DNA of 64,000 nucleotides from Planctomycetaceae bacterium. Its GTDB lineage: Bacteria; Planctomycetota; Planctomycetia; Pirellulales; Pirellulaceae. The translations under genes were made by a program, and so were the position numbers. Where the stretch lies: positions 1 to 64,000 of the forward strand of contig JACKHN010000020.1 in assembly GCA_020638975.1 (NCBI GenBank), written 5' to 3'. Under the pieces are notes generated by a model. It had not been told where the DNA came from. It was given only the letters and a program-made list of their open reading frames with translations, and ran no database searches. Below, piece by piece: positions 3,717-33,428 of this stretch (position 1 is its first letter; each line of letters starts with the position of its first letter).

Positions 3717-4604
3717 ATGTCGACCGATACCCCGAACTACTATCTGGGCTGCCCCGTCTGGGCCTGCGAAAAATGGAAGGGCAGTCTGTTCACTTCCGCC
3801 GCACCCCACCACAGTTGGCTGTCGCAGTATGCCAGTGTCTTCAACACGGTCGAAGGGAATAGCACGTTCTATGGCCTACCGTCGCTCGATACGATCCGGC
3901 GCTGGGCCGAGTCCGTTCCGGCTGGATTTCGCTTCGCGCTGAAGTTCCCGAAGGCGATCAGTCACGACAAGCGATTGCTGAACGCCGGCACCGAAACTCG
4001 CGAGTTCTTACAAGTTCTGGAAGTGTTGCACGATGCCGGTTGCCTGGGCCCTTCGTTCCTGCAGTTGCCGCATGGTTTCTCGCCGCATCACCTCGCCGAT
4101 CTGGAAACTTACCTGCGAGAACTGCCTCGCGAGTTGCCTTACGCCGTGGAAGTCCGGCATCGCGAATTCTTTGACGAAGCGGCGCATGAGTCAGCGCTCG
4201 ATGACTTATTGACCGAGTTGCACATTGATCGTGTGATCTTCGACAGCCGAGCGTTATTCAGCGCTCCGCCAAGTGATTCTTTTGAAGTCGAGTCGCAGCA
4301 CCGCAAGCCAAATCTTCCGGTACACCAATCGATCACGTGGCGACATCCGATACTCCGGTTCGTCGGACGTAATGAACTCGAGCGGAACTTGCCTTGGATT
4401 CATGAGTGGTCGCTGAAGATTGCCAATTGGATGAAGGCTGGTTTGCATCCGCTCGTCTTTACGCACTGCCCCGACGAGCGATTTGCTCCCCAATTCGCTC
4501 GCATGTTTCATGAAGAGCTGAAACTGCACGTCGATGTCGCAGACTTACCGCCATGGCCTGGGGAAACGGAAATCCATCCTCCGAAACAGATGGAATTATT
4601 CTGA
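3717..4604 (+). CDS. DUF72 (YecE/UPF0759) family protein
   Basis: N-terminus YYLGCPVWACEKWKGSLF...YASVFNTVEGNSTFY fits the DUF72 signature (IGTSGW...W.G.FYP...FNTVE.N.TFY). Confidence 0.7.
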   Translation: MSTDTPNYYLGCPVWACEKWKGSLFTSAAPHHSWLSQYASVFNTVEGNSTFYGLPSLDTIRRWAESVPAGFRFALKFPKAISHDKRLLNAGTETREFLQVLEVLHDAGCLGPSFLQLPHGFSPHHLADLETYLRELPRELPYAVEVRHREFFDEAAHESALDDLLTELHIDRVIFDSRALFSAPPSDSFEVESQHRKPNLPVHQSITWRHPILRFVGRNELERNLPWIHEWSLKIANWMKAGLHPLVFTHCPDERFAPQFARMFHEELKLHVDVADLPPWPGETEIHPPKQMELF

Positions 4605-7053: not shown

Positions 7054-8406
7054 TCACGAAACTGCGGGATCAGCGGAATCGTGGGCCGCGATGGCGGCTC
7101 GGGAAAGGCTCAATGCGATTGCTGCCAGCACGATGCACGCGACGCTGAGTACGACATAAATCAACCAAGGCAGTCGCTCCGTGAGCGGTAATGGCTCCGG
7201 TTCGAAGAGCGGATTCGCCGTTCGCATTCCCAACGCTGCACGCGTTGGTTCAGGTGTCAGTCGTTGCGGGAGATTTCTAGCAAAGTCGTAGGTTGGATCT
7301 TCTGCATCAGGATTCCCGAAGTACAGTCGGCACGACTCGGATTGTTGGGACGAAGCGATTACGACCTGACGGGCATCAGCGGCAAAGGTTACTTGTTGAA
7401 TTTGCAAAGGTGGGTTCCGGTTATCGGTCACGATCAATCGTAATCGGGCCGCTCGAGCTTCGGGGAACTCGCTGCGCAACGGCTTTGTGGGTTCGCCAGC
7501 GCGCTTCCGCCAAACACCTGTGGCAATCGTGCTGAAACCCGTACCCGAGCCTTCTGGACCGCCAGCTTCGATTTGGTAATTTCGCACGAACGCTTCATCG
7601 GCGATATGGACTTCGATACTTGATACCGGCGTCTGATCACCACCAAGCTCACACACCCAGCGCGAGCCGGGACCGCTGTCGGTGGGAATGGCTTCACGCT
7701 CGCCAACGCGGGCGTTCAAGGTCAAAGTCTCGCCCGGCACTTCCACGGTTCGCAAAACAGTCACTTCCTCGATCGTAACAGCCTGCTTGTCGACCAGTGG
7801 ATCGCGAAACAACTTGATGCGGAGATAACGATAGCGACTCAATGGGTATTCGATCGCTTGATCTCGGAGCACTTTGTCACCACGGCGAAAGTCGACCAAA
7901 GGTTGCTCGTGCAAGGGCCTCCACTGTTCACCATCGTCGCTGCCTTCGAGCGTGAAGAGTCGGCGATAGTTCTGGCCGGGCAGTTGTATCTCTAAGGCAT
8001 TATGCTCCAACTTGCCGTCACCAAGATCAAGTGTCAGCTCACTCGATTGATCGGGGCCTTCCGTACGGTTGAACTCGCGAGCCTCCAGCGGTTGTCGTTC
8101 TGATCGCTTGCTGCGAACTCGCAATGCATACGGCACTTCTTTGCCGCTGGCCGTGAAAACTCGGAGGTCGTGCAAATCGTATCGGGCCCCGTCGAATATC
8201 TCTGGTGTGAGGATCACATCCATCCACTCACTTGTAGCCTCGGCGGAGCGTTCAATCGCTGCGGTATGTTGCCAACGGATCGGCGACTCGCTGGTGGTGC
8301 TGGCAACTGGATTCTGTTGACTGAACGCGGACGTGCTCCAAAGCGACAAGCCGGCTACGCAAGTTGCCATCCAACGTATTCGTTTCGTGATTGGTTGTTC
8401 ATGCAT
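7054..8406 (-). CDS. Secreted protein with N-terminal signal and C-terminal TM anchor (DUF3999-like)
   Basis: Signal peptide MATCVAGLSLWSTSAFSQQ and C-terminal TM LIYVVLSVACIVLAAIALSL. It overlaps the upstream DUF2339-like gene by 8 nt, so translational coupling is likely. Pfam DUF3999 and DUF2339 proteins are typically neighbours, and the ~450 aa size fits. Confidence 0.5.
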   Translation of the reverse strand: MHEQPITKRIRWMATCVAGLSLWSTSAFSQQNPVASTTSESPIRWQHTAAIERSAEATSEWMDVILTPEIFDGARYDLHDLRVFTASGKEVPYALRVRSKRSERQPLEAREFNRTEGPDQSSELTLDLGDGKLEHNALEIQLPGQNYRRLFTLEGSDDGEQWRPLHEQPLVDFRRGDKVLRDQAIEYPLSRYRYLRIKLFRDPLVDKQAVTIEEVTVLRTVEVPGETLTLNARVGEREAIPTDSGPGSRWVCELGGDQTPVSSIEVHIADEAFVRNYQIEAGGPEGSGTGFSTIATGVWRKRAGEPTKPLRSEFPEARAARLRLIVTDNRNPPLQIQQVTFAADARQVVIASSQQSESCRLYFGNPDAEDPTYDFARNLPQRLTPEPTRAALGMRTANPLFEPEPLPLTERLPWLIYVVLSVACIVLAAIALSLSRAAIAAHDSADPAVS

Positions 8407-10282
8407 GGTTGTTCGCGGCCTCTTCTGTTTGTTCGGCGTTGGTTGCTGGCTTCAAGCGTTGATAGACTCGAGCCGCCACGCCCAGGAAAACGGCAAGTAT
8501 GAAGAAGGCGAGGATGCGATAGATTTCGCTTAACCCCGACATGTCCAGCAGAAGTACTTTTCCAATCGTTAATGCGAAGAAGGCAATGCCCGTCCAGCGG
8601 AGCGTTGCCCGACCGAGGCGAAATCCGACTGCCAGCAAGATCGAGGCGTAGACCGTCCAAAGAATTGAGACGGACATCATCCCAATACGTCGCCAGGAGG
8701 TCGGCTCGGCAGCCATGCGAGCAACTGCGAAAAAGAAGTTCGACAAATCAACGGTCAACACCAGCCACAGCAGCACGATCGCGCCCAGTCCGGTGGCAGC
8801 GACGAGGTAACGCGTGGTGGTATTTAGCCGATCTCGATAGACCCTTGAAGCAAAATAGGCTGTCGCGATACAAGCAACGACGCCGATCGACGGCAAGGCA
8901 ACTCGATTCACAATTGGAAGAAGCAACTCGTTCGGGTAAGACGGCAGATCAATGCAGATGACTCGTACGACGCTCGCTGCTGTGATCACTGCGGCCTGAA
9001 TGCCCAGCACCCGCGATTCGATTCGCAAGTGAAACCACCACATCGCCGCACCAGTTGCGGCCCAACCTATCGCGATCCATCGACTGTCTGCCTGAAGCGG
9101 TATTGCTAGTACAACGAAACCAACGGAAACCGCCAAAGCGGTGACCAGTTCCGGAATGACTCCAGGCCTGAAGGCCAAAAGCAACCGACCTGCCATGACG
9201 TACACCGCAGCCATTGTAACGGCCGCCGTTCCCATCCACTCGCGATAATCGTCAGCCATCAATACGTAAAATGCGCCGAACCAAAACGCGGCATTGAGCA
9301 GTGTTAGGACAATGTTCTCGCGGCGATTGCTGTCAGTCCGCTTCAAGTGGCCTGCGAAGTTCTGGATCAAGTAAAGCCCGAAGATGACGGCCTGAAATGA
9401 CAAGGCCCACGCCCACTTCTCCGGATGATAGTTTCCTTCATACCACGACCAGAACAGTCCGTGGGTACCCAAGAAAGCCACGCTGGAAATCAAGGGCCAT
9501 CTTCGTACGAGCGTCACCACGAGTACGCCAAGATTCAATGCGGCCAGATAAACGAACAGAGCGATGTAAAGATCGTGTTCGTTCGGCAACAAGAGCGGCG
9601 TCGCAAGACCGCCCAACACCGCCATCAGCGCTATCGCGCCAGAATCGTAGAGGATCGCGCACACCATCGACAACACGACGATTATCGCGAGGAAGAATCC
9701 TGCTTGCTCAGCCGGCAACAACGAATAGAAGCCGAACGAACTGTAGGCTGATAGATAGAGAACGACGACACCACAAGCGGCCAGCATCTGGGACGAGATC
9801 GCTGCCCCACGTCGATGATAACGATGACCGGCCAGCATCAAGCATGTTCCGGCGAGGACGCCTATAGCAACGCGTCCAACCGGACCGATCCAATTATTCT
9901 CATAGGCGTATTTCAAGAAGAAGGCGGCGGTGAAGATCGACAGGACGACGGCCACCCAGCCAAACGCCTTTTGTCCAATCAGCAACTCCCATTGAATCGC
10001 TGGTCGTGGTTCCTGCGAAATCGATTGCTGCACAGGCGGTTGTGCGGTTTGTGCCTCGATTACTTCTTCGGCTACCACAAAGTCATCGTCGACCGTCGGG
10101 CCTACTGCCGTCGGCAACTCGGTCGTTGCGAAACGTCGCTCCAACTCCTGAATTCGACTTTCCAAGCCCTTGATGCGACTTGTGCGTACCAATGCCACGA
10201 TTGACAGAATCAGCACCGCAACCGGCACGCATAACGCGACAGCGGCGATTAGCAGAATGAAGATTGTTTCCAAGGAACCCAT
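8399..10282 (-). CDS. Large polytopic membrane protein (DUF2339-like)
   Basis: N-terminal TM followed by a coiled-coil IKGLESRIQELERRF, then more than 12 hydrophobic helices. This architecture is typical of DUF2339. Confidence 0.65.
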   Translation of the reverse strand: MGSLETIFILLIAAVALCVPVAVLILSIVALVRTSRIKGLESRIQELERRFATTELPTAVGPTVDDDFVVAEEVIEAQTAQPPVQQSISQEPRPAIQWELLIGQKAFGWVAVVLSIFTAAFFLKYAYENNWIGPVGRVAIGVLAGTCLMLAGHRYHRRGAAISSQMLAACGVVVLYLSAYSSFGFYSLLPAEQAGFFLAIIVVLSMVCAILYDSGAIALMAVLGGLATPLLLPNEHDLYIALFVYLAALNLGVLVVTLVRRWPLISSVAFLGTHGLFWSWYEGNYHPEKWAWALSFQAVIFGLYLIQNFAGHLKRTDSNRRENIVLTLLNAAFWFGAFYVLMADDYREWMGTAAVTMAAVYVMAGRLLLAFRPGVIPELVTALAVSVGFVVLAIPLQADSRWIAIGWAATGAAMWWFHLRIESRVLGIQAAVITAASVVRVICIDLPSYPNELLLPIVNRVALPSIGVVACIATAYFASRVYRDRLNTTTRYLVAATGLGAIVLLWLVLTVDLSNFFFAVARMAAEPTSWRRIGMMSVSILWTVYASILLAVGFRLGRATLRWTGIAFFALTIGKVLLLDMSGLSEIYRILAFFILAVFLGVAARVYQRLKPATNAEQTEEAANNHA

Positions 10283-20094: not shown

Positions 20095-20700
20095 ATGAAT
20101 TTAAACCCCTATGCCTCACCGCTGCAGGTGCCGATTGAAACGGCAGTACTGGTTACGCCGGATAGGAGCTCGCGTCGACTACGAGCGTTGGGGCGATGGA
20201 CACTGATCTGCGGCATCAGCGCCGCACCCAGCTTTTTCTGGGGGTGTGCGCTTCATCGCGAGTTCGCACACGTTGTGGGCATGATCTGCGGAATACTTGT
20301 CTTCGTGATCGGATATACCGTCGTTGAATGTACCCACTACTATCAACAAGTCATCACGCGTCCTCACATCCACCGCACGGCACTAATCGGCTACGGGACG
20401 AGGATTCTCGTCTCCGTGATCTTTCCCGTTGGCCTGGCGATTGACATGATGACCGGAATGGTTAGCGTTGCCATCGTCGAGAATACTTGGCCGACCGATT
20501 CACTCGAATTCTCCGAGATGAGTGCCGCCGCGTCAGCGTTCGCCGTTTTCCTAACCACGATCGTCCAAGGAGTTCTGCTGAACATCGTGCTCTTCGGATA
20601 CATGCTCGGAGTGTACGGATCACTCCGCGTGCTGGCACGCGTTCGCCAGAGGCTGCGAGAGCGGAAAGATAACGTCGCTGAACTCCAGCAACTCTATTGA
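20095..20700 (+). CDS. Hypothetical polytopic membrane protein with N-terminal NPY motif
   Basis: Four or five hydrophobic helices. I chose start MNLNPYASP by analogy with MSSNPYENPYQP at 48935. An alternative upstream start is at 20017. Confidence 0.4.
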   Translation: MNLNPYASPLQVPIETAVLVTPDRSSRRLRALGRWTLICGISAAPSFFWGCALHREFAHVVGMICGILVFVIGYTVVECTHYYQQVITRPHIHRTALIGYGTRILVSVIFPVGLAIDMMTGMVSVAIVENTWPTDSLEFSEMSAAASAFAVFLTTIVQGVLLNIVLFGYMLGVYGSLRVLARVRQRLRERKDNVAELQQLY

Positions 20701-20753
20701 GGCCACCCCAGCTCGCACCGACTGCCCTCGAATTGCCTCAGGCGGATACTCAA

Positions 20754-21257
20754 CTAAACCAATGTCTTCGTCATGAACGCCGCATCTGCTCCAGTCGGGC
20801 TGCCACAGCCAAAGCCAACACGTTCATAAAGCCGCCGAGCGTTCACGTTCTCGCTGTGGACTTCCAGTGTAAGCTTACAGCAGCCGAGGCGGATGGCTTC
20901 CTGTTCCACAGCCGCGAGCAGCTTTGTACCCAGACCTTGCCCACGATAGTCTCGATGGACGGTCAGGTCGTGGACATTTAGCAGCGGAAGCGCTCGAAAC
21001 GTCGAATAACCCAGAAAACAAATCGCGAGGCCCACCGGGCGTGTACCGTCGAGAGCCAGGAAATAGCGACCATTCGACTGCGCGGCGAGCCCCGGGATCA
21101 GCCGCCTCTGGGCCGTTTCATCCAACGGTCGTCCACCTTGAAGCGGCTCGCAGGCATACATGTTCAGCAAATCAAGAATGCCATTATGGTGCAAATCGTC
21201 AGCAAGATCTGCTTGAATGATGACAGGCGGACTCACGATGTTCTCACAATACGCCAT
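20754..21257 (-). CDS. GNAT-family N-acetyltransferase
   Basis: VHRDYRGQGLGTKLL...ARRLYERVGF contains the acetyl-CoA binding motif A (R/QxxGxG/A). Start trimmed to MAYCEN (cat at 21255-21257). Confidence 0.75.
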   Translation of the reverse strand: MAYCENIVSPPVIIQADLADDLHHNGILDLLNMYACEPLQGGRPLDETAQRRLIPGLAAQSNGRYFLALDGTRPVGLAICFLGYSTFRALPLLNVHDLTVHRDYRGQGLGTKLLAAVEQEAIRLGCCKLTLEVHSENVNARRLYERVGFGCGSPTGADAAFMTKTLV

Positions 21258-21269
21258 GCTTCTCCGGCA

Positions 21270-21428
21270 GACTAGTCCTGCGTTACAGCTGCTAATTAGG
21301 GTGAATGAAGTGAGCCACTGGCCGTAAGGCCCCGGGCGCGCCCTGCATTCCTCGTCGCCCGACCGCTTACGCGTCACGGCTCACGAAACGGGCAAACCCT
21401 AAAATCAAGGTGTAACGCTGCACTCGTG
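21270..21428. mobile_element. MITE-like ~160-bp element, copy A, with ~18-bp terminal inverted repeats
   Basis: About 90% identical to the reverse complement of 25528-25686. Its termini (a)gactagtcctgcgttaca and tgtaacgctgcactcgtg are inverted repeats of each other. It encodes no protein. Confidence 0.6.
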
Positions 21429-21453
21429 TTACGTTTCAGCTCGATTTTAGGAT

Positions 21454-21515
21454 TAGCCGTTTGGGCGCTAGCCACGGTTCGTTCGTGCCAACCGGGGCTA
21501 ACGCCCAAACGGCTA
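21454..21515. repeat. 20-nt-arm inverted repeat hairpin in the copy-A-proximal spacer
   Basis: tagccgtttgggcgctagcc...ggctaacgcccaaacggcta has a single mismatch. It lies just downstream of the DAC gene stop at 21552 and is terminator-like. Confidence 0.5.
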
Positions 21516-21551
21516 GTGTCTACAACCCTAGTTCTTAGCAGTCACAAAGCA

Positions 21552-22487
21552 CTAGTCACCTGTCGGCGAAGGAGGTTCGTACTCGAAGTCCTTCCATTTC
21601 ATCGCACGGCGGAAAGGTTCAATACGGAGAATAACTTCGCCATCCTTGAACAACCGGACCGTACCATTCGATTCACTGACAACGACCGCAATCGCATTGG
21701 TACTCTTGCTGATCGCGGCAGCTGCCCAGTGACGTGATCCCAGACCTTTGGACAACGTCAGGTTGACGTGATCGGCATCCACGATCTGACACGCCTTTTC
21801 CACCGTCCCATCCGGCGCGACGATAAACGCTCCGTCGAGCGGGGCGATTTCTTTGACCGCTTCGCGAACGCGGGGATCCGGCAGCGAGCGTTCCTTGCGA
21901 CCATAGCCCTTGACGGGGTCGAAGCCTGCCGGATGGCTGAGCGCGATGACTTTACGGGTGTCGCCGACGACAAACATCGTCCCGACCGGCTTGCCTTCGC
22001 GGCCTTCGCGTCCGATTTCGACGGCCAGATCGACGACGACCTTCAGAGTCTCGAGCGGGACGCTTGTTTCGATTTGCCGTAAGTCGCGAGCGGTCAGTCG
22101 CCCGAGGTGCTCGTCGAGTCGGATGAAGCTGATCGAGTCCATCGAATCGGCTTCGAAACCGCTGTAGACCGCAATGATCTCCGAATTGGGCTCTAGAATC
22201 TCGTTCGCCACACCTTCGAGCAGCGCGTGTGTCAACTTCTCGAAAACAGGCGAATCGTGCATTCCCAGCACGATGGTCTCAAGGCCAGCTTCCTTAGCAC
22301 CTTCCAATGCTTCGGCCGTGTCTGCGGCAACCAGAATCTTCTCGTGTCCGGCGCGTTCGCTGAGCTCCTTCCAGTCGGTCGGACCATCGAGGATCACAAG
22401 CAAAACATCAGCATCCACCTGCTTACTCAGGCTGACGGCTAAACCGTAGATCGAGGCGAATTGCTCGTTGAAACGTTGCTGTTTCAT
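21552..22487 (-). CDS. Diadenylate cyclase (DAC/DisA_N) domain protein with a distinct ~150-aa N-terminal domain (DacZ-like architecture)
   Basis: The C-terminal DAC motifs match the c-di-AMP synthase signature (DGA...GTRH...RHRAA...VVSEE): DGAFIVAPDG, KGLGSRHWAAAAIS and AIAVVVSESNGTVRLF. Confidence 0.8.
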   Translation of the reverse strand: MKQQRFNEQFASIYGLAVSLSKQVDADVLLVILDGPTDWKELSERAGHEKILVAADTAEALEGAKEAGLETIVLGMHDSPVFEKLTHALLEGVANEILEPNSEIIAVYSGFEADSMDSISFIRLDEHLGRLTARDLRQIETSVPLETLKVVVDLAVEIGREGREGKPVGTMFVVGDTRKVIALSHPAGFDPVKGYGRKERSLPDPRVREAVKEIAPLDGAFIVAPDGTVEKACQIVDADHVNLTLSKGLGSRHWAAAAISKSTNAIAVVVSESNGTVRLFKDGEVILRIEPFRRAMKWKDFEYEPPSPTGD

Positions 22488-22609
22488 TCAGCCGAAACTG
22501 CCAAAACGGGAGGGGCGGGCGAGAGAACAGAGCGACGTTCACATAGTAAAGCGTTTCGCCAACTAGAGCAACGGCCCTCGCCACTAGCATTTAAGCGACG
22601 AGATTCCGC

Positions 22610-23317
22610 CTAAAACCAACTCATCGACCGAAGACGCTCGGCGATCGTCGGCGGTTCTGGAAGAGCTGGCGAGCGACCTTCAACGAAGTCGCGCCAAGCC
22701 GGAACGTTGTCGCCGTAGTCCTGCCCCGAAACGGATTTCAAGGACTGAACCGCCCGATGCTGGAGTGCTGGATCCTTGTCGTTCAAAGCAACAGCAAGTG
22801 CTTGGAGTGATTGTTGGTCTTTGAACTTAGCGAGTTGCGCAGTCGCAGCCAGTCGTACGTCCAGATCCGAGTCACTGCTGACGGCTTGGGAAAGCACGTC
22901 AAGTGCTTCGGGACCGCCGCGACGTCCCCAGGCTCGACAGGCGGCAATGCGGACATCTGTACTCTCGTCACTCATCGCAAGCTGCAGCGTCGGGATCGTT
23001 TCGGGTGCCGGGAACTCAGCGAGCGCCAACGTCGCCTCTGCGCGCAACACGGTGTTCGTCGAGTTCTGAACAATGTCTGCGAGCGTCGGAATCACTCGGC
23101 GTTGCTCTTGGGGTGACAGTCCGGTCGGATTCTCGCGAATCGCTCGCAATTCGGCCAACTGAGTGTGGAACGTCGGCCCGGCTTGCTCGTCCTTTTCCCA
23201 TTGGTTGCGGTAATACGGATTCATTGCGGTCAATCCACCGAATGGACCATCGGCGCATCCGCTAGCGGCCATTCCGACGAGTAGAACGATCAGAGCTTTA
23301 GCTGGGGAAAATCGCAT
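22610..23317 (-). CDS. HEAT-repeat (PBS-lyase-like) lipoprotein
   Basis: Lipoprotein signal MRFSPAKALIVLLVGMAASGC, then repeated xxDxDVRxAAxxAL units (VRIAACRAWG, VRLAATAQLA, ALQHRAVQSL). Confidence 0.6.
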   Translation of the reverse strand: MRFSPAKALIVLLVGMAASGCADGPFGGLTAMNPYYRNQWEKDEQAGPTFHTQLAELRAIRENPTGLSPQEQRRVIPTLADIVQNSTNTVLRAEATLALAEFPAPETIPTLQLAMSDESTDVRIAACRAWGRRGGPEALDVLSQAVSSDSDLDVRLAATAQLAKFKDQQSLQALAVALNDKDPALQHRAVQSLKSVSGQDYGDNVPAWRDFVEGRSPALPEPPTIAERLRSMSWF

Positions 23318-23593
23318 TGCCACCAAGGAGTTTCCAAATTTACGTGCGAGTGCCGGTGCTGAATAGCGGCGGGACTGTAGCAAATCCACATCCAGGCTGC
23401 TATACGGATCTGCGTCGATCCGCGATTAATCGTGGTGACTCTTAGATTCATCGGCGATTATTGCGATCCGGCGTTTTGGAGTACATGCTGTGAATTGACC
23501 AAACTTTTGCTAAAACCAACGAACACCCGATAGATAACTGCATTTTAAGCTGTCCAGCTCGTTCGGCTGACAGCGCAATTCGGAGGCAACAGA

Positions 23594-24112
23594 GTGGTCG
23601 ATCCAACAAAACACGATGACGCGCGGGGCTTGGTCGAGTCGATTCTTCGTAAGATCCCAGGCTTTCGCGGCTATCTTGAGCAGGAATACCGCCGAGAAAG
23701 CGATCATATCGCCCGCATGTGGCTCGCAGATCGATTGGAAGCCTGCAAGGCCGGTGTCGGTCGCTATCAGCGAAACTTGCTGGATGCTCGTAAGATCGAC
23801 TACCTGGACGATTGTGAGCGAGTCCGAACGCGACTCGATACGCTGGTTTCGCGAGTTCGTGGCGCGATGCGAGGCTACAGCGGCGTGTTCGACTTTGTTC
23901 GTGTCGATGAAGCTCTGCTCGACCAGGTTTATGACGTGGATGTGGTCCTCGTCGACGAGGCCGAGTGGCTGCTCAAAGCGGTTGACGAGCTTCTGGTTCC
24001 CGAAAACGATCCGAAGACCGCGATTCCCGAGTTTCTCAAACACGTCGAAGAACTGCATCGCCAGTTCGATCGGCGCGGCGAGTTGCTTCAGGGATTGGGC
24101 ACGGATAAATAG
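23594..24112 (+). CDS. Hypothetical alpha-helical protein (GTG start)
   Basis: Good GGAGG Shine-Dalgarno 9 nt upstream of GTG 23594. Genome-typical codon usage. The opposite-strand 206-aa ORF is judged a shadow. Confidence 0.5.
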
Positions 24113-24165
24113 GCCGCGTCCACGCTTCATTCAGACAGCACGTTAGCACAGTAAGGAAAGTTGCC

Positions 24166-25533
24166 ATGGGGATGCGTTTAGAAGTCATTCAGTATTTCGA
24201 CGACTCGAATCGCTCGTTGGTCCATCGAGTCCCCCCGCAAGGCTCAGCCGATATCAAACTCGGCGCTCAGTTGATCGTGCAGGAGAATCAAGAGGCTGTC
24301 TTCTTTCGCGATGGCAAGGCGATGGATCGCTTCGGGCCAGGACGCCACACGCTGACCACAATGAACGTGCCGGTGATAACGCGGATTTTGACAATTCCGT
24401 GGGAGAAGTCACCCTTCCAGGCTCAGGTCTACTTCGTTGGCAAGCAGACCTTTCTCGATCAAAAATGGGGCACTCGGCAACCGATCATTGTCCGCGACAA
24501 CGACTTTGGCATGGTTCGACTACGAAGTTTCGGCAAATTCTCGATGCGAGTCGCCGATTCGGAAGTATTGCTGAATACGCTGGTCGGCACACAAGGTAAG
24601 TACACGACCGACGAAGTTACCTCCTACCTCAAAGATCTGATCGTCTCGCGAATGACGGACGTGTTGGGTACGCTTGCGATTAGCATGCTCGATTTACCCT
24701 CGCGATTCGACGAGGTCGCTGCCGCGACGCGTGTGCAAGTTGGTGAAGACTTCAGCAAGTACGGATTAGAGCTGGTTGATTTCTTCATCAACTCGATCAC
24801 GCCACCTGAGGAAGTCCAAAAGGCGATCGATGCTCGCAGCAGCATGGGTGCGATCGGCGATCTCCGCTCGTTTACGATGTATCAAGCGGCCAACAGCATG
24901 TCCAAGATGGCAGAGAACGGCGGTGGTGGTACGGGGAGCGGCGCGATGGGGATTGGAATGGGCGCTGGGTTCGGCATGATGATGCCGCAAATGATTCGGG
25001 ACGCAATGCAGGGTCTTCAACCTGCACCCGCTGCCACTTCGTCGCCCGCCGCCGGTTTGCCAGGAGCGTCAGTGACTTCACCCACTGCAAGCGGACTGAA
25101 TTTTGATGCATTGTCGTCTTCATCAGCAGACCCGAAGCAGCTCGTGCGAAGCGTCCTGCAGACGATTCAAGGCGCGATGATCAACGAACAAGGCGACACG
25201 TGGCAAGTGACGATTCCGCTAGGCTCGCTACGAAAGCAAACAGTCGGGATCGACTTCAGTCGTCGAGATGACGAGGGCCACGCAATGATTGCTTATTCCG
25301 CGACATGCGGCCCAGCAACGCCCCAAAATGCGCTGCACTTACTCCGTTTCAACGAACAAATGGTCCATGGTGCCTTTGCCGTCCGCAATACGGCGTCCGG
25401 CGACATGGTCGTCGTCCAAGCCAATCAACTCGCAGATACGGCGGATCCCTTGGAAATCACCCGGCTCGTAACATCCGTGGCCTGGCAGGCCGATCGTGCG
25501 GAAGAGAAGTTGACGGGCGCAGATCAGCACTAG
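24166..25533 (+). CDS. SPFH/Band-7 (Band_7_1, YdjI-like) protein with Gly/Met-rich linker and YbjN-like C-terminal domain
   Basis: N-terminus [55 protein letters not shown]...[19 protein letters not shown] matches the YdjI-type SPFH family. [24 protein letters not shown] linker follows, then a C-terminal ~150 aa with a YbjN/T3SS-chaperone-like pattern. An AAGGAAAG Shine-Dalgarno is present. Confidence 0.75.
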
Positions 25534-25686
25534 TGCTGCGTTACACCTTGATTTTAGGGTTTGCCCGTTTCGTGAGCCGTGACGCGTAAGCGGTCGGGCG
25601 GCGAGGAATGCAGGGCGCGCACGGGGCCTTACGGCCAGCGGCTCACTTCATTCACCCTAATCCTTAGCTGTAACGCGGCACTAGTC
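25528..25686. mobile_element. MITE-like ~160-bp element, copy B (inverted relative to copy A)
   Basis: Termini cactagtgctgcgttaca and tgtaacgcggcactagtc are perfect 18-nt inverted repeats apart from one mismatch. The interior is ~90% identical to the reverse complement of copy A. The TIR overlaps the TAG stop of the SPFH gene. Confidence 0.6.
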
Positions 25687-25999
25687 ATCTGATTTGAGGC
25701 TCTCGAAATCGTCCAGGCGGACCACGGTTGCGGCATATGCCGCGATCGGAGGTGCGACGATTTGACACATGCCTCCCTCCCCGCTCCCCTCACATCAAGG
25801 CGGCGGTATCTGCTAGAATTGCCACCAGCCGAGTAGGTATCTGCCCCACCTACTAGGTTAGGCCGGTCGAGGAATTCTGCCCCTCCTCGATCGGCTGTTT
25901 TCTTATTTTAAGAAAATATCCGGAATTCCGACCCGGTTTTGGGCGCGTTTTGCAATAGATACTTATGAGTACTTGTATCTGCTTGCGCACAGAGATCCC

Positions 26000-26581
26000 A
26001 TGCCCAATATCCGTGTCTTGCTGATCGAAGATGATCCGACCTATGCGCGTCTGCTCCAGCGAATGCTCGCGTTATCGCCGGTCGGCTTCGATGTCACCAT
26101 TGCTGACCGGCTGACGACCGCGTTGAGCGAACTCTATAAAGGCCGTTTCAATCTCATCCTGACGGACCTGAACTTGCCCGATATTCGAGGCCTCGACACC
26201 GTCGAAGCTCTCCGATCGGTCGAGTCGTCGCTTCCCATCATCGTGCTGACCGGGTTGGAGGACGTCGCCCTGGAGAAGCAAGCCGTCGCAGCCGGTGCCC
26301 AACTATGTCTCAGGAAATCAGAGGTTGATACGAAACGACTACTCGACGCGATGCACCAAGCAGTTCGCATTTCGCGTGAGACGAAGCCGCTAATCAAGGA
26401 TCGACAGGTCGACCGACTGCTCGCTGACTTGGAGGAGAACATCATCGCCGTCAAGAACGCCATCGCGATTCTCGACAACCAGCTACGCGACTCGCAACAG
26501 CAGGACGCAGTTCATACGATTCGATCACACATCGGAAAGATGCAAGACAAGATCGGAGACTACCGACGTCTCGGACGCTGA
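26000..26581 (+). CDS. Single-domain response regulator (REC) with C-terminal coiled-coil
   Basis: IRVLLIEDDP...LILTDLNLPD...IIVLTG receiver motifs with the phospho-Asp in TDLNLPD. Start trimmed to MPNIRV (ATG 26000). Confidence 0.75.
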   Translation: MPNIRVLLIEDDPTYARLLQRMLALSPVGFDVTIADRLTTALSELYKGRFNLILTDLNLPDIRGLDTVEALRSVESSLPIIVLTGLEDVALEKQAVAAGAQLCLRKSEVDTKRLLDAMHQAVRISRETKPLIKDRQVDRLLADLEENIIAVKNAIAILDNQLRDSQQQDAVHTIRSHIGKMQDKIGDYRRLGR

Positions 26582-33051: not shown

Positions 33052-33090
33052 TTAAACGCGCCCTCGAGAGGATCGGACGGGCGAACCAGT

Positions 33091-33170
33091 AGTGGTACAC
33101 TTTGTCGTAAGTCGACTTTGTCGTAAGTCGACTTTGTCGTAAGTCGACTTTGTCGTAAGTCGACTTTGTC
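33091..33170. repeat. Five tandem copies of a 16-bp unit (CTTTGTCGTAAGTCGA) followed by an 8-bp-stem hairpin, in the promoter region of the che operon
   Basis: Copies 1-4 are perfect head-to-tail and copy 5 ends ...tcgg. The hairpin gtcgggcactcctgcccgac follows at 33166-33185. The region lies 40-120 nt upstream of the first cheW start (33051). Confidence 0.8.
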
Positions 33171-33428
33171 GTAAGTCGGGCACTCCTGCCCGACAAAAGA
33201 CGGCCAAGAGTGGCCGTCCTACTTTCCGGAATTTCAAACTGTACCACTACCGGCGAACCGAAAAGACATGTCGCGGACCTATGGATCTATTCTAATGGAA
33301 GCGAATCGCACCTCCACACATTTAACGATCGAGACGGTTAAATCGAATATACGGATGTCCGATCCGCGAAACCCGCGAACGGGTTCGCGCGCCTAGGCTG
33401 TACCTCAGATTCAGGTCGACAACGGCAC

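Follow-up and report, generated by a model that had tools for sequence, protein, structure and literature searches.

Probable IS630-derived miniature elements at the CTAG stop codons bordering a diadenylate cyclase–SPFH gene cassette in a Planctomycetaceae bacterium

The stretch of DNA analysed here in its entirety (64,000 nucleotides, hereafter the window) includes a cassette of four genes, the two outermost of which end at short inverted repeats, and this region is organized as follows.

20754 to 21257, minus strand: gene for a GNAT acetyltransferase, on the left flank of the repeat pair
21275 to 21423, plus strand: putative MITE, copy A, 149 bp, with its IS-left-type end on the left
about 21426 to 21552, plus strand: putative MITE, copy A2, about 127 bp (nhmmer E=2e-30)
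21552 to 22487, minus strand: diadenylate cyclase (DAC) gene, 311 aa, with a DacZ_P sensor domain and a DAC domain
22610 to 23389, minus strand: gene for a HEAT-repeat protein, interior to the cassette
23594 to 24112, plus strand: gene for a hypothetical protein of 172 aa, interior to the cassette, called as a gene in a public metagenome-assembled genome (MAG) and kept beside SPFH in relatives
24166 to 25533, plus strand: gene for an SPFH/Band_7_1 protein, 455 aa
25533 to 25681, minus strand: putative MITE, copy B, 149 bp, inverted relative to A and 93% identical to it

A sequence-only reading of this locus had described two inverted copies of an element of about 160 bp, and these are indeed present as arms of 159 nt each (21270-21428 and 25528-25686), separated by a spacer of 4099 nt and constituting the only inverted pair longer than 37 nt in the 64-kb window. 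Their identity had been put at about 90%, and the measured value is 93% (148 of 159 positions complementary), with a longest perfect tract of 63 nt common to A and the reverse complement of B. The terminal repeats of about 18 bp were also recovered, in that the 18-nt motif, with up to three mismatches allowed, matches four times versus 0.03 expected by chance and sits at the four element ends only, but the symmetry extends well past 18 bp. Neither copy codes for protein, as had been proposed, since no open reading frame is confined to the elements and those that overlap them are read-through of neighbouring frames. What the sequence-only reading missed is a third element, A2, which adjoins A and carries the same termini as A and B around a different palindromic core (hairpin arms at 21454-21479 and 21490-21515); the gcactagtc at 21549-21557, rightly noticed but taken for a stray copy of the terminal motif, is the right terminus of this complete element. 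A2 is an older, diverged subfamily and shares about 70% identity, core included, with one from a different Pirellulales MAG (L016). All three elements have terminal inverted repeats and are shorter than about 300 bp, the size expected of bacterial MITEs.

The junctions of these elements follow a common pattern. The mobile unit is 149 bp long and has on its flanks a TA that lies inside CTAG, so that it measures 155 bp when counted from C to G. Copy B is flanked by TA at 25531-25532 (within CTAG 25530-25533) and at 25682-25683 (within CTAG 25681-25684), A by TA at 21273-21274 on its left (within CTAG 21272-21275) and A2 by TA at 21553-21554 on its right (within CTAG 21552-21555), while the right flank of A is TC (21424-21425), read as a mutated TA. 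A is the most diverged among nine aligned copies, and B differs from the family consensus at only 2-3 positions. Both cassette genes that abut the elements have their stop codon inside a junctional CTAG: the TAG of DAC (complement of 21552-21554) consists of the last A2 base and the TA duplication, and that of SPFH (25531-25533) of the TA duplication and the first base of B. On the other side, 14 nt separate the left junction of A from the start codon of GNAT. CTAG is scarce in the 64-kb window (68 observed versus 244 expected) and terminates a long open reading frame at only five of these 68 sites, two of which are occupied by the elements.

Further copies were sought, as had been recommended, with an exact 20-mer from the core against metagenome contigs, which revealed 12 real copies. 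One of these, at 99.9%, is the B locus of the window itself; at least ten others, 87-98% identical, have unrelated flanks, and most measure 155 bp from CTAG to CTAG, with small internal deletions in two. In the alignment of nine copies the mean column identity is 96% and substitutions are mostly private. The copies cease to resemble one another exactly at the CTAG on either side, beyond which the bases vary; CTAG, with the TA that it contains, is found at both junctions of most copies, and the CTGG, CTCG or TTGG seen at several junctions is read as a later mutation of CTAG. The contigs in question have a GC content of 0.54-0.56, as does the window, and the five from ERZ795053 show even coverage of about 3x. 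A second repeat family is common to the copy-bearing contigs. Shared samples, GC content, even coverage and this second family suggest that these contigs represent one population and probably belong to one genome. Beyond close copies, the terminal-repeat pattern was found in six Planctomycetota/Pirellulales MAGs, around at least four unrelated palindromic cores.

The origin of these ends is indicated by full-length insertion sequences (ISs) of about 1.23 kb from other metagenomes, whose termini read CTAGTGCTGCGT[T/C]AC..., as in the MITEs. In two contigs (L013 and L017) the terminus directly adjoins the 3' end of a transposase gene of the IS630 family (DDE_3, PF13358, E=7.5e-15; NF033545 transpos_IS630, E=1.3e-18), the TAA stop of which falls within the repeat (TGTAACGC). 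Complete ISs of about 1.23 kb are present in L018, L019 and L020, each with an HTH_32 orfA and a 231-aa DDE_3 orfB, and end in CTAGTGCTGCGTCAC... at one side and ...GTAACGCAGCACTAG at the other. Over 36 positions, one MITE end agrees with the IS right end at 30-31; the other matches the IS left end at 25 of 36 ungapped positions and shares with it a GGA(A)TTAGGGT motif, this second end being no closer to the IS left end than to the right one (27/36). Termini as in the MITEs occur on L017, L018, L019 and L020, and the terminal inverted repeats are homologous to those of ISs with an IS630-family transposase. We accordingly consider, with a probability of roughly 0.9, that A, A2 and B are MITEs, that is, non-autonomous internal-deletion derivatives of an IS630-family (Tc1/mariner superfamily) IS, of a type that is common in Pirellulales. 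A tblastn search with the transposase found no IS630 transposase gene in the 64-kb window, so that a cognate autonomous element in the source organism is only putative and the copies may be immobile fossils. The IS630-like fragment in L032, a contig that bears a MITE copy, has no more than 51% identity to the reference transposase.

The length of the target duplication can be read in two ways, since TA adjoins the element at every intact junction, and a palindromic CTAG combined with G...C ends makes a 4-bp duplication look identical. CTAG on both sides of every intact junction is formally the outcome of a 4-bp CTAG duplication, as would be produced if the elements derived from the IS5 family in the manner of MITEPsy1 of Pseudomonas syringae, which inserts at CTAG or YTAA with duplication of the target (PMC3189936) and is related to the IS5-family ISPsy2, a kinship unlike the IS630-type ends found here. 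This derivation is hardly credible, given that the full-length ISs with these termini encode a two-ORF transposase of IS630 type (HTH_32 and DDE_3; NF033545), that the stop codon of such a transposase falls inside the repeat and that the inverted symmetry takes in the G and C beside TA (GTGC...GCAC), as if these were element bases; no DDE_Tnp_1 partner shares these ends. IS630/Tc1/mariner elements insert into TA, which is duplicated (PMC2170065), and for IS630 a preference for TA within 5'-CTAG-3' is indicated by Tenzen & Ohtsubo 1991, as listed among the references of PMC2170065. The transposase family of the ISs sharing the ends thus points to a duplication of 2 bp (TA) and not of 4 bp (CTAG).

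Comparison with relatives, another check that had been advised, showed the DAC-HEAT-hypothetical-SPFH cassette in L036 and L038 devoid of these MITEs. In L034, L036 and L038, DAC ends in GAC TAG within an unoccupied CTAG, and SPFH ends in CAC TAG T in L036 and CAC TAG C in L039, again with both CTAG sites unoccupied; its stop is TGA in L038 and TAA in L037. In L034 a MITE of the same family with a different core sits at the SPFH stop, and the order MTS-DUF1559-hypothetical-GNAT-DAC runs across the A/A2 site, where there is no MITE, so that the adjacency at this site predates the insertions. The suggestion that the CTAG core of the repeats supplies both TAG stop codons is therefore correct as to where the stops lie, but not as to their source, these stops being ancestral and only rebuilt by the elements.

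These unoccupied sites also bear on the possibility that the repeats are a mere local intergenic duplication devoid of mobility. Within the 64-kb window, copies are confined to one 4.4-kb stretch, as such a duplication would have it, but the ten or more other copies with unrelated flanks, the recurrence of these ends on full-length IS630 elements and in six further MAG species, the sharp CTAG boundaries and the unoccupied sites in relatives refute it and leave it virtually no probability. The earlier classification of the repeats as MITEs or IS remnants is borne out by the same evidence, and the mobile-element reading stands, the copies being found neither at two sites only nor without target-site duplications. 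Among other repeat classes, REP/BIME sequences, defined in PMC3733652 as palindromes of 20-40 bp with a GTAG or CGTC tag and a RAYT (IS200/IS605-like) gene, were rejected for these units of 127-149 bp with long IS630-matching terminal inverted repeats and TA/CTAG junctions.

A further question is whether A, B and the 4.1-kb segment between them form one unit, either a composite transposon with the four genes as cargo or a segment able to invert or be excised. The geometry of two inverted copies around four genes fits such a unit, and the 63-nt perfect tract suffices for RecA-dependent recombination; IS630 pairs can act as composite transposons, to go by the title of Tenzen & Ohtsubo 1991 as given in PMC2170065. 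Which genes adjoin the cassette varies by species (on both sides in L036, on the right in L034), in the metagenome pair L023/L033 flank and element are common and divergence begins exactly at the element end, and one contig of a short-read MAG, L002, is limited to the cassette and breaks off within a MITE at either end. Contig breaks inside repeats are, however, an expected assembly artefact, and we regard the single unit as very unlikely: L036 and L038 have the cassette but not these MITEs, and the CTAG at its stops is unoccupied there, GNAT and DAC are adjacent in L034 without a MITE, and the GC content of the cassette equals that of its flanks. Moreover, a separate CTAG/TA is present at each of the four junctions, and on the left two elements of different ages are nested, and therefore the insertions were separate events. 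The orientation is the same in the window and in two independent public contigs that each span both repeats (MAG contig JACKHL010000014.1 and JGI contig Ga0116240_10017366), and no recombinase or invertase gene was recognized from the domains of the genes in or beside the segment. Neither a composite transposon, in view of the MITE-free cassettes and the separate CTAG/TA of each MITE, nor an invertible DNA segment, in view of the one orientation in three contigs and the lack of a recombinase domain nearby, is supported at this locus, and the recombination-driven inversion or excision and horizontally acquired cargo envisaged by the sequence-only reading found no support either.

The elements could instead serve mainly as host RNA or DNA hairpins for DAC and SPFH (3'-UTR stabilisers, terminators or regulatory sRNAs), their transposon origin being incidental. 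Effects on the stability of transcripts are known for further bacterial MITEs, Correia and ERIC among them. Such bacterial repeat motifs have been reviewed (PMC2229807). Each element is predicted to fold end to end as one very stable hairpin (-74.6 and -59.6 kcal/mol; z = -5.0 and -6.8), would be transcribed in 3' UTRs owing to its position directly after a stop codon, and one compensatory pair change was seen, in L032. Across 53 predicted pairs and nine copies, this one compensatory change nonetheless stands against many pair-breaking ones, the covariation term is unfavourable (+1.08), and the same sites in relatives lack the element. Unrelated subfamily cores with conserved ends are, in addition, the pattern of transposase recognition and not of a common RNA function. 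No Rfam match was obtained in 20500-26500 at E<=1, and no T-tract terminator signature was present within the elements. A primary role as host hairpins is thus highly improbable.

Under the preferred reading, that of IS630-derived MITEs, transposase would come in trans from a full-length IS that shares these terminal inverted repeats, and it would bind the ends of about 35 bp and excise the 149-bp unit; such trans-mobilisation is what the shared ends suggest. The unit would then enter the TA of a 5'-CTAG-3' target, with duplication of TA, and because G is the first and C the last base of the element the insertion would read C-TA-[G...C]-TA-G, rebuilding CTAG on both sides, thereby keeping TAG stops and making new targets. 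Insertion into a CTAG holding a TAG stop would leave the protein unchanged, so that such sites may act as a tolerated safe harbour, which B would have used at the stop of SPFH and A2 at that of DAC. As each insertion would turn one target into two, A could nest against A2: it would have entered the regenerated CTAG at the left end of A2, the shared TA having since mutated to TC, so that A2 probably came first and A later. Independent insertions at the stops of two outward-facing terminal genes would make the inverted A/B pair a by-product, with no function as a unit around the four genes.

With respect to known systems, a close parallel is RUP of Streptococcus pneumoniae, a MITE derived from IS630-Spn1, which is likewise short, non-coding, multi-copy and mostly intergenic, with IS630-family terminal inverted repeats and TA insertion (PMC2229807). 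RUP differs in being 107 bp long, in belonging to Firmicutes, in its unrelated sequence and in a reported preference for landing in IS elements, whereas the elements described here are 149 bp long, rebuild CTAG through their G...C termini, lie at TAG stops and are nested. IS630 of Shigella sonnei and ISY100 of Synechocystis, which duplicate TA (PMC2170065), have in common with the ISs sharing the MITE ends their transposase family (DDE_3, NF033545); they are autonomous elements of about 0.95-1.15 kb, whereas those in the window have lost their entire coding region, and unlike the autonomous elements the Pirellulales parent ISs are split in two ORFs (an HTH orfA of 147 aa and an orfB of 231 aa). 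Nezha, other cyanobacterial IS630-derived MITEs and the Correia elements of Neisseria are also TA-flanked, about 100-160 bp long, abundant and intergenic and form whole-length hairpins, and Correia elements may lie at the ends of genes and share their transcripts, but the sequences and hosts of Nezha and Correia are unrelated to those considered here. To our knowledge the parent transposase of Correia is unknown, and we know of no report that elements of the Nezha or Correia type regenerate a palindromic CTAG target. In conclusion, the elements at this locus are a real but ordinary kind of mobile DNA, of a kind already known from RUP and Nezha.

Three MITEs are located around a four-gene cassette in the window, namely A and B, two inverted copies of a 149-bp element, and A2, a diverged element of about 127 bp which abuts A. 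Based on Pfam assignments and public gene calls, the order of genes and elements is as follows.

Genes and elements around the cassette
20754-21257, minus strand, GNAT acetyltransferase
21275-21423, MITE A
21426-21552, MITE A2
21552-22487, minus strand, DacZ-type diadenylate cyclase (DAC)
22610-23389, minus strand, HEAT-repeat protein
23594-24112, plus strand, hypothetical protein of 172 aa
24166-25533, plus strand, SPFH/Band_7_1 protein
25533-25681, MITE B
ending at 26581, plus strand, response regulator
from 26619, minus strand, CheB and chemotaxis cluster

The chemotaxis cluster to the right of B extends on the minus strand from 26619 to about 33000 and comprises CheB, a CheA-like Hpt/HATPase/CheW/REC protein, CheW, CheR, CheW and STAS. 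A DUF1559 gene and 55.6% GC point to a planctomycete, and identical proteins are found in the MAGs GCA_020639015.1 and GCA_020426725.1 and in several wastewater-type metagenomes.

The sequence-only reading had placed an inverted pair of about 160 bp at 21270-21428 and 25528-25686, and this was borne out by a repeat scan, which returned arms of 159 nt, complementary at 148 of 159 positions (93%) and 4099 nt apart; the pair is far above chance, since the runner-up in the entire 64-kb window is only 37 nt long at 73%. Allowing up to 3 mismatches, there are four matches to the 18-nt terminal motif CACTAGTGCTGCGTTACA (0.03 expected), all located exactly at the four element ends. A2 starts where A ends and has the termini of A and B around a different hairpin core (alignment; nhmmer E=2e-30), and the gcactagtc motif at 21549-21557, previously listed as a further copy, is indeed present but is really the right end of this third complete element. 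Each of the three elements folds over its whole length as one hairpin (B, -74.6 kcal/mol, z=-5.0; A2, -59.6 kcal/mol, z=-6.8). No further copies were found in the window by nhmmer profile (E<=10) or blastn (word size 7), and no element sequence surrounds the other ACTAGT sites (39741 and 54693). A 29-codon ORF (MCQIVAPPIAAYAATVVRLDDFESLKSDD; 25684-25773, minus strand) takes its stop from the TAG of the right-hand CTAG of B; it is without gene support and absent from public MAG gene calls.

A search of JGI/ENA metagenome contigs for an exact 20-mer of the A/B core (GCTCACGAAACGGGCAAACC) gave 13 loci, of which one (L028, GC 0.59) was set aside as a chance match with no element around the 20-mer and another corresponds to B itself in the window (99.9%). 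At the other 11 loci the element is 87-98% identical and its flanks are unlike those of the window, and because two of them (L023 and L033) have one flank in common they count as at least 10 distinct loci. The null explanation, according to which the repeats are a mere local duplication and not mobile, is refuted by these copies with unrelated flanks and can be given practically no weight. In the flanked alignment, similarity stops sharply at CTAG on both sides, and the bases 5' of the left and 3' of the right CTAG are variable. The CTAG-to-CTAG span is 155 bp in most full-length copies, with small internal deletions in two (L024 and L031). At a few junctions the CTAG is replaced by CTGG, CTCG or TTGG, which we take to be mutations after insertion. 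Nine aligned copies show a mean column identity of 96% with mostly private substitutions, a pattern that fits the amplification of one master copy; the most diverged of the nine is A, and B lies near the family consensus. The copy-bearing contigs have a GC of 0.54-0.56, and five ERZ795053 contigs with copies have 2.9-3.7x coverage, which fits a single population. A protein adjacent to the L031 copy was traced to ERZ795053, ERZ27257486 and an NCBI TPA Pirellulaceae MAG, and not to GCA_020639015.1; the case for the copies belonging to the same genome as the window is circumstantial.

Two contigs from sister samples, L023 (copy at 1513-1667) and L033 (693-847), share 1.5 kb of flank and an identical MITE with a mutated CCAG junction (99.9%) and part company exactly at the MITE end, 16 nt before a tRNA-Gln(CTG) gene in L023; an assembly chimera at the repeat would account for this, as would a real rearrangement at the MITE. 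A second MITE-like family is represented in the window at 33086-33253 by a TA-flanked element with 19-nt TIRs (CCAGTAGTGGTACACTTTG / CAAACTGTACCACTACCGG, 89% complementary) and an internal 16-bp unit, ACTTTGTCGTAAGTCG, in 5 tandem copies. Copies in which this unit is not expanded are found at 88-92% identity in L026 (about 2910-2982) and in L031/L040, and those in L031/L040 immediately adjoin a copy of the first MITE (...GCAGCAC-TA-GTGGTACAG...).

The strong hairpins might also be taken as a functional RNA or terminator, which is highly improbable, given that cores vary and ends are conserved across the family, a pattern that points to transposase recognition rather than to a common RNA role. 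Rfam returned zero matches at E<=1 between 20500 and 26500, and a promoter/terminator consensus scan found none inside the elements and no T-tract, with counts at shuffle level. Covariation among nine copies likewise leaves a selected structure unsupported, with many broken pairs against one compensatory event, a T-A to C-G double change in L032 (6008-6162; alignment columns 54 and 98) that keeps the stem pair (CGTAAG/CTTACG to CGCAAG/CTTGCG).

A scan of the terminal pattern ACTAGTNNNGCGTTACANCTNNNNNTTAGG against one genome per species yielded six loci, each in a different Planctomycetota/Pirellulales MAG species, the source species itself not being among the matches in this genome collection. 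The elements at L014, L015 and L016 measure about 130-135 nt and combine ends as in the window MITEs with unrelated palindromic cores, that of L016 being similar to A2 (about 70% identity overall). In L012 and L013 the terminus directly adjoins a transposase C-terminus on the opposite strand (...HYTPKHGSWLNIAENE...WQMKIDDARIKLTSVYPNIKM, then the stop), the TAA stop lying inside the terminal repeat (TGTAACGC). This transposase fragment matches DDE_3 (E=7.5e-15) and NCBIfam transpos_IS630 (E=1.3e-18) and belongs to a very large 231-aa orfB group, in which 7997 of the 8000 candidates scored reached E<=1e-20. Contig L017, whose transposase is the closest, ends 34 nt upstream of orfA, and complete ISs were taken from L018, L019 and L020; these are about 1.23 kb long, encode a 147-aa HTH_32 orfA and a 231-aa DDE_3 orfB, and are bounded by CTAGTGCTGCGTCAC... 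at one end and ...GTAACGCAGCACTAG at the other. One sub-terminal region of the MITE (ACCTTGATTTTAGGGT) shares 30-31 of 36 positions with the IS right end, and the second (GCTAAGGATTAGGGT) is similar to the IS left end (GTCTAGGAATTAGGGT), with 25 of 36 ungapped positions in common, although it matches the right end at 27 of 36 and is thus no closer to the left end by ungapped count. From these end matches the MITE is read as an internal-deletion derivative of the IS, the match being clear-cut at the IS right end only, and its mobilization would have occurred in trans. L019 holds two such IS copies in opposite orientation (1-906 and 1479-2709) with about 650 bp between them, and the IS in L020 lies amid other mobile-element genes (RVT_1, DDE_5/DDE_Tnp_1), so that this IS family appears to cluster in transposon-rich regions.

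Elements of the IS630/Tc1/mariner group insert into TA, which is duplicated (PMC2170065), and a preference of IS630 for TA inside 5'-CTAG-3' is indicated by the title of Tenzen & Ohtsubo 1991, as cited there. The MITE begins with G and ends with C, and on entering CTAG it would give C-TA-[G...C]-TA-G and rebuild CTAG at both sides. Junction CTAGs enclose both stop codons, that of SPFH at 25531-25533 and that of DAC on the complement of 21552-21554. In the SPFH stop, T25531-A25532 would be the TA copy made on insertion, and B contributes G25533 as its first base; in the DAC stop, the G of TAG lies opposite C21552, the base with which A2 ends. Since the insertions rebuild CTAG and TAG, both proteins are unchanged, and the same property also explains tandem nesting. 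The A/A2 junction, GCAC-TC-GTGT, is the product expected if A2 inserted first and A then entered the TA of the CTAG regenerated at the left end of A2, this TA having since mutated to TC. By sequence alone, an IS5-type MITE with a 4-bp CTAG duplication would be compatible with these junctions, but the ISs with matching ends encode IS630-type transposases, which makes this origin a very poor candidate, and we infer a 2-bp TA duplication. CTAG is far rarer in the window than base composition predicts (68 sites observed, about 244 expected); six of these sites fall in or at the three MITEs, and of only five that end ORFs of at least 150 codons two are MITE-occupied. The L032 copy also adjoins the stop of a 906-aa ORF.

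Contigs carrying SPFH homologues of 80-88% identity were read.

Relatives and their SPFH and DAC stop sites
L036: SPFH 88%; four-gene cassette without MITE, other genes on both sides; SPFH stop GCAC TAG TAG..., unoccupied; DAC stop GCGAC TAG TTGG, unoccupied
L038: SPFH 88%; cassette without MITE; SPFH stop TGA; DAC stop an unoccupied CTAG
L039: SPFH 83%; DAC/HEAT not adjacent; SPFH stop CAC TAG C, unoccupied
L034: SPFH 86%; order MTS-DUF1559-hypothetical-GNAT-DAC-HEAT-hypothetical-SPFH kept; different-core member of the A/B MITE family at the SPFH stop (8368-8505; TTAGTGCAGCGTCACAGCT...GTGAAAAAGCACCTAG); DAC stop TAG in CTCTAGTC; GNAT-DAC interval without MITE

These loci show that the TAG codons and their CTAG context are ancestral, that the MITEs inserted specifically in the window's lineage, and that the cassette and the GNAT junction are older than the insertions; the SPFH stop was independently hit in another species (L034). 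The chemotaxis flank is not syntenic with L034, L036 or L038, the break coinciding with the MITE site. In L036, the position downstream of DAC that corresponds to A and A2 is taken up by a palindromic repeat unrelated to them (4200-4260; GGAGTCAGGAGTCAGAATTCAGGAGTCAGGAG / CTCCTGAATTCTGGCTTCTGG).

A composite transposon, or inversion or excision of the 4.1-kb segment between A and B as envisaged in the sequence-only reading, is therefore very unlikely. The unoccupied sites and conserved synteny contradict a cassette unit, A, A2 and B are each bounded by junction CTAGs of their own, one orientation is common to the window and two independent contigs spanning both repeats, and Pfam assignments revealed no recombinase gene in or beside the segment. 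In its favor, the 63-nt perfect tract common to A and the reverse complement of B could permit rare RecA-mediated inversion, and the L023/L033 discordance would count if it is a real rearrangement. Horizontally acquired cargo, also proposed earlier, is not upheld, as the cassette occurs without MITEs in L036 and L038 and its composition gives no transfer signal (GC 0.55-0.57, as in the flanks). The bracketing by A and B is a coincidence of two outward-facing genes both ending in CTAG. One contig (L002/L007; GCA_020426725.1, JAGQPM010000463.1, 4252 bp) is exactly the four-gene cassette, and in this and other cases (L003, L004, L008-L010) short-read contigs of the organism stop inside the MITEs or a few bases beyond the DAC and SPFH stops; as the repeats fragment assemblies, contigs of this kind are not to be taken as evidence for an excised cassette.

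Cyanobacterial IS630-derived MITEs such as Nezha are among the closest known systems, and IS630/ISY100 elements are autonomous relatives of the window MITEs. The closest systems also include RUP of S. pneumoniae, a MITE that derives from IS630-Spn1 and targets TA (PMC2229807). MITEPsy1 is a CTAG-targeting analogue that is IS5-derived (PMC3189936). A full-text literature search returned no paper tying IS630 to Rhodopirellula in such a sense, and none that describes IS630-derived MITEs from Planctomycetes. The elements are well supported and useful for annotation, not surprising, and reveal no new mobile cassette, switch or mechanism. Their chief value is for annotation and assembly. Both the MITE family and the IS630-type IS from which it derives occur widely among Pirellulales MAGs; they split short-read contigs precisely where genes end and could be confused with regulatory RNAs or genomic-island borders.

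A doubtful extension is that the G...C termini evolved for CTAG regeneration, being stop-neutral and self-seeding, and that the A/B pair occasionally inverts or mobilizes the c-di-AMP cyclase/SPFH module. If true, TAG stops would be safe harbors in CTAG-depleted genomes, each insertion would double the local targets and lead to nested arrays, and A/B inversion or mobilization would add to the scrambled synteny around the cassette in Pirellulales. In conclusion, the window offers a clean natural example of how the CTAG/TA preference of IS630 combined with G...C termini allows insertion at TAG stops with the protein unaltered, which suggests, as a modest idea, that stop codons can act as such harbors where CTAG is depleted.
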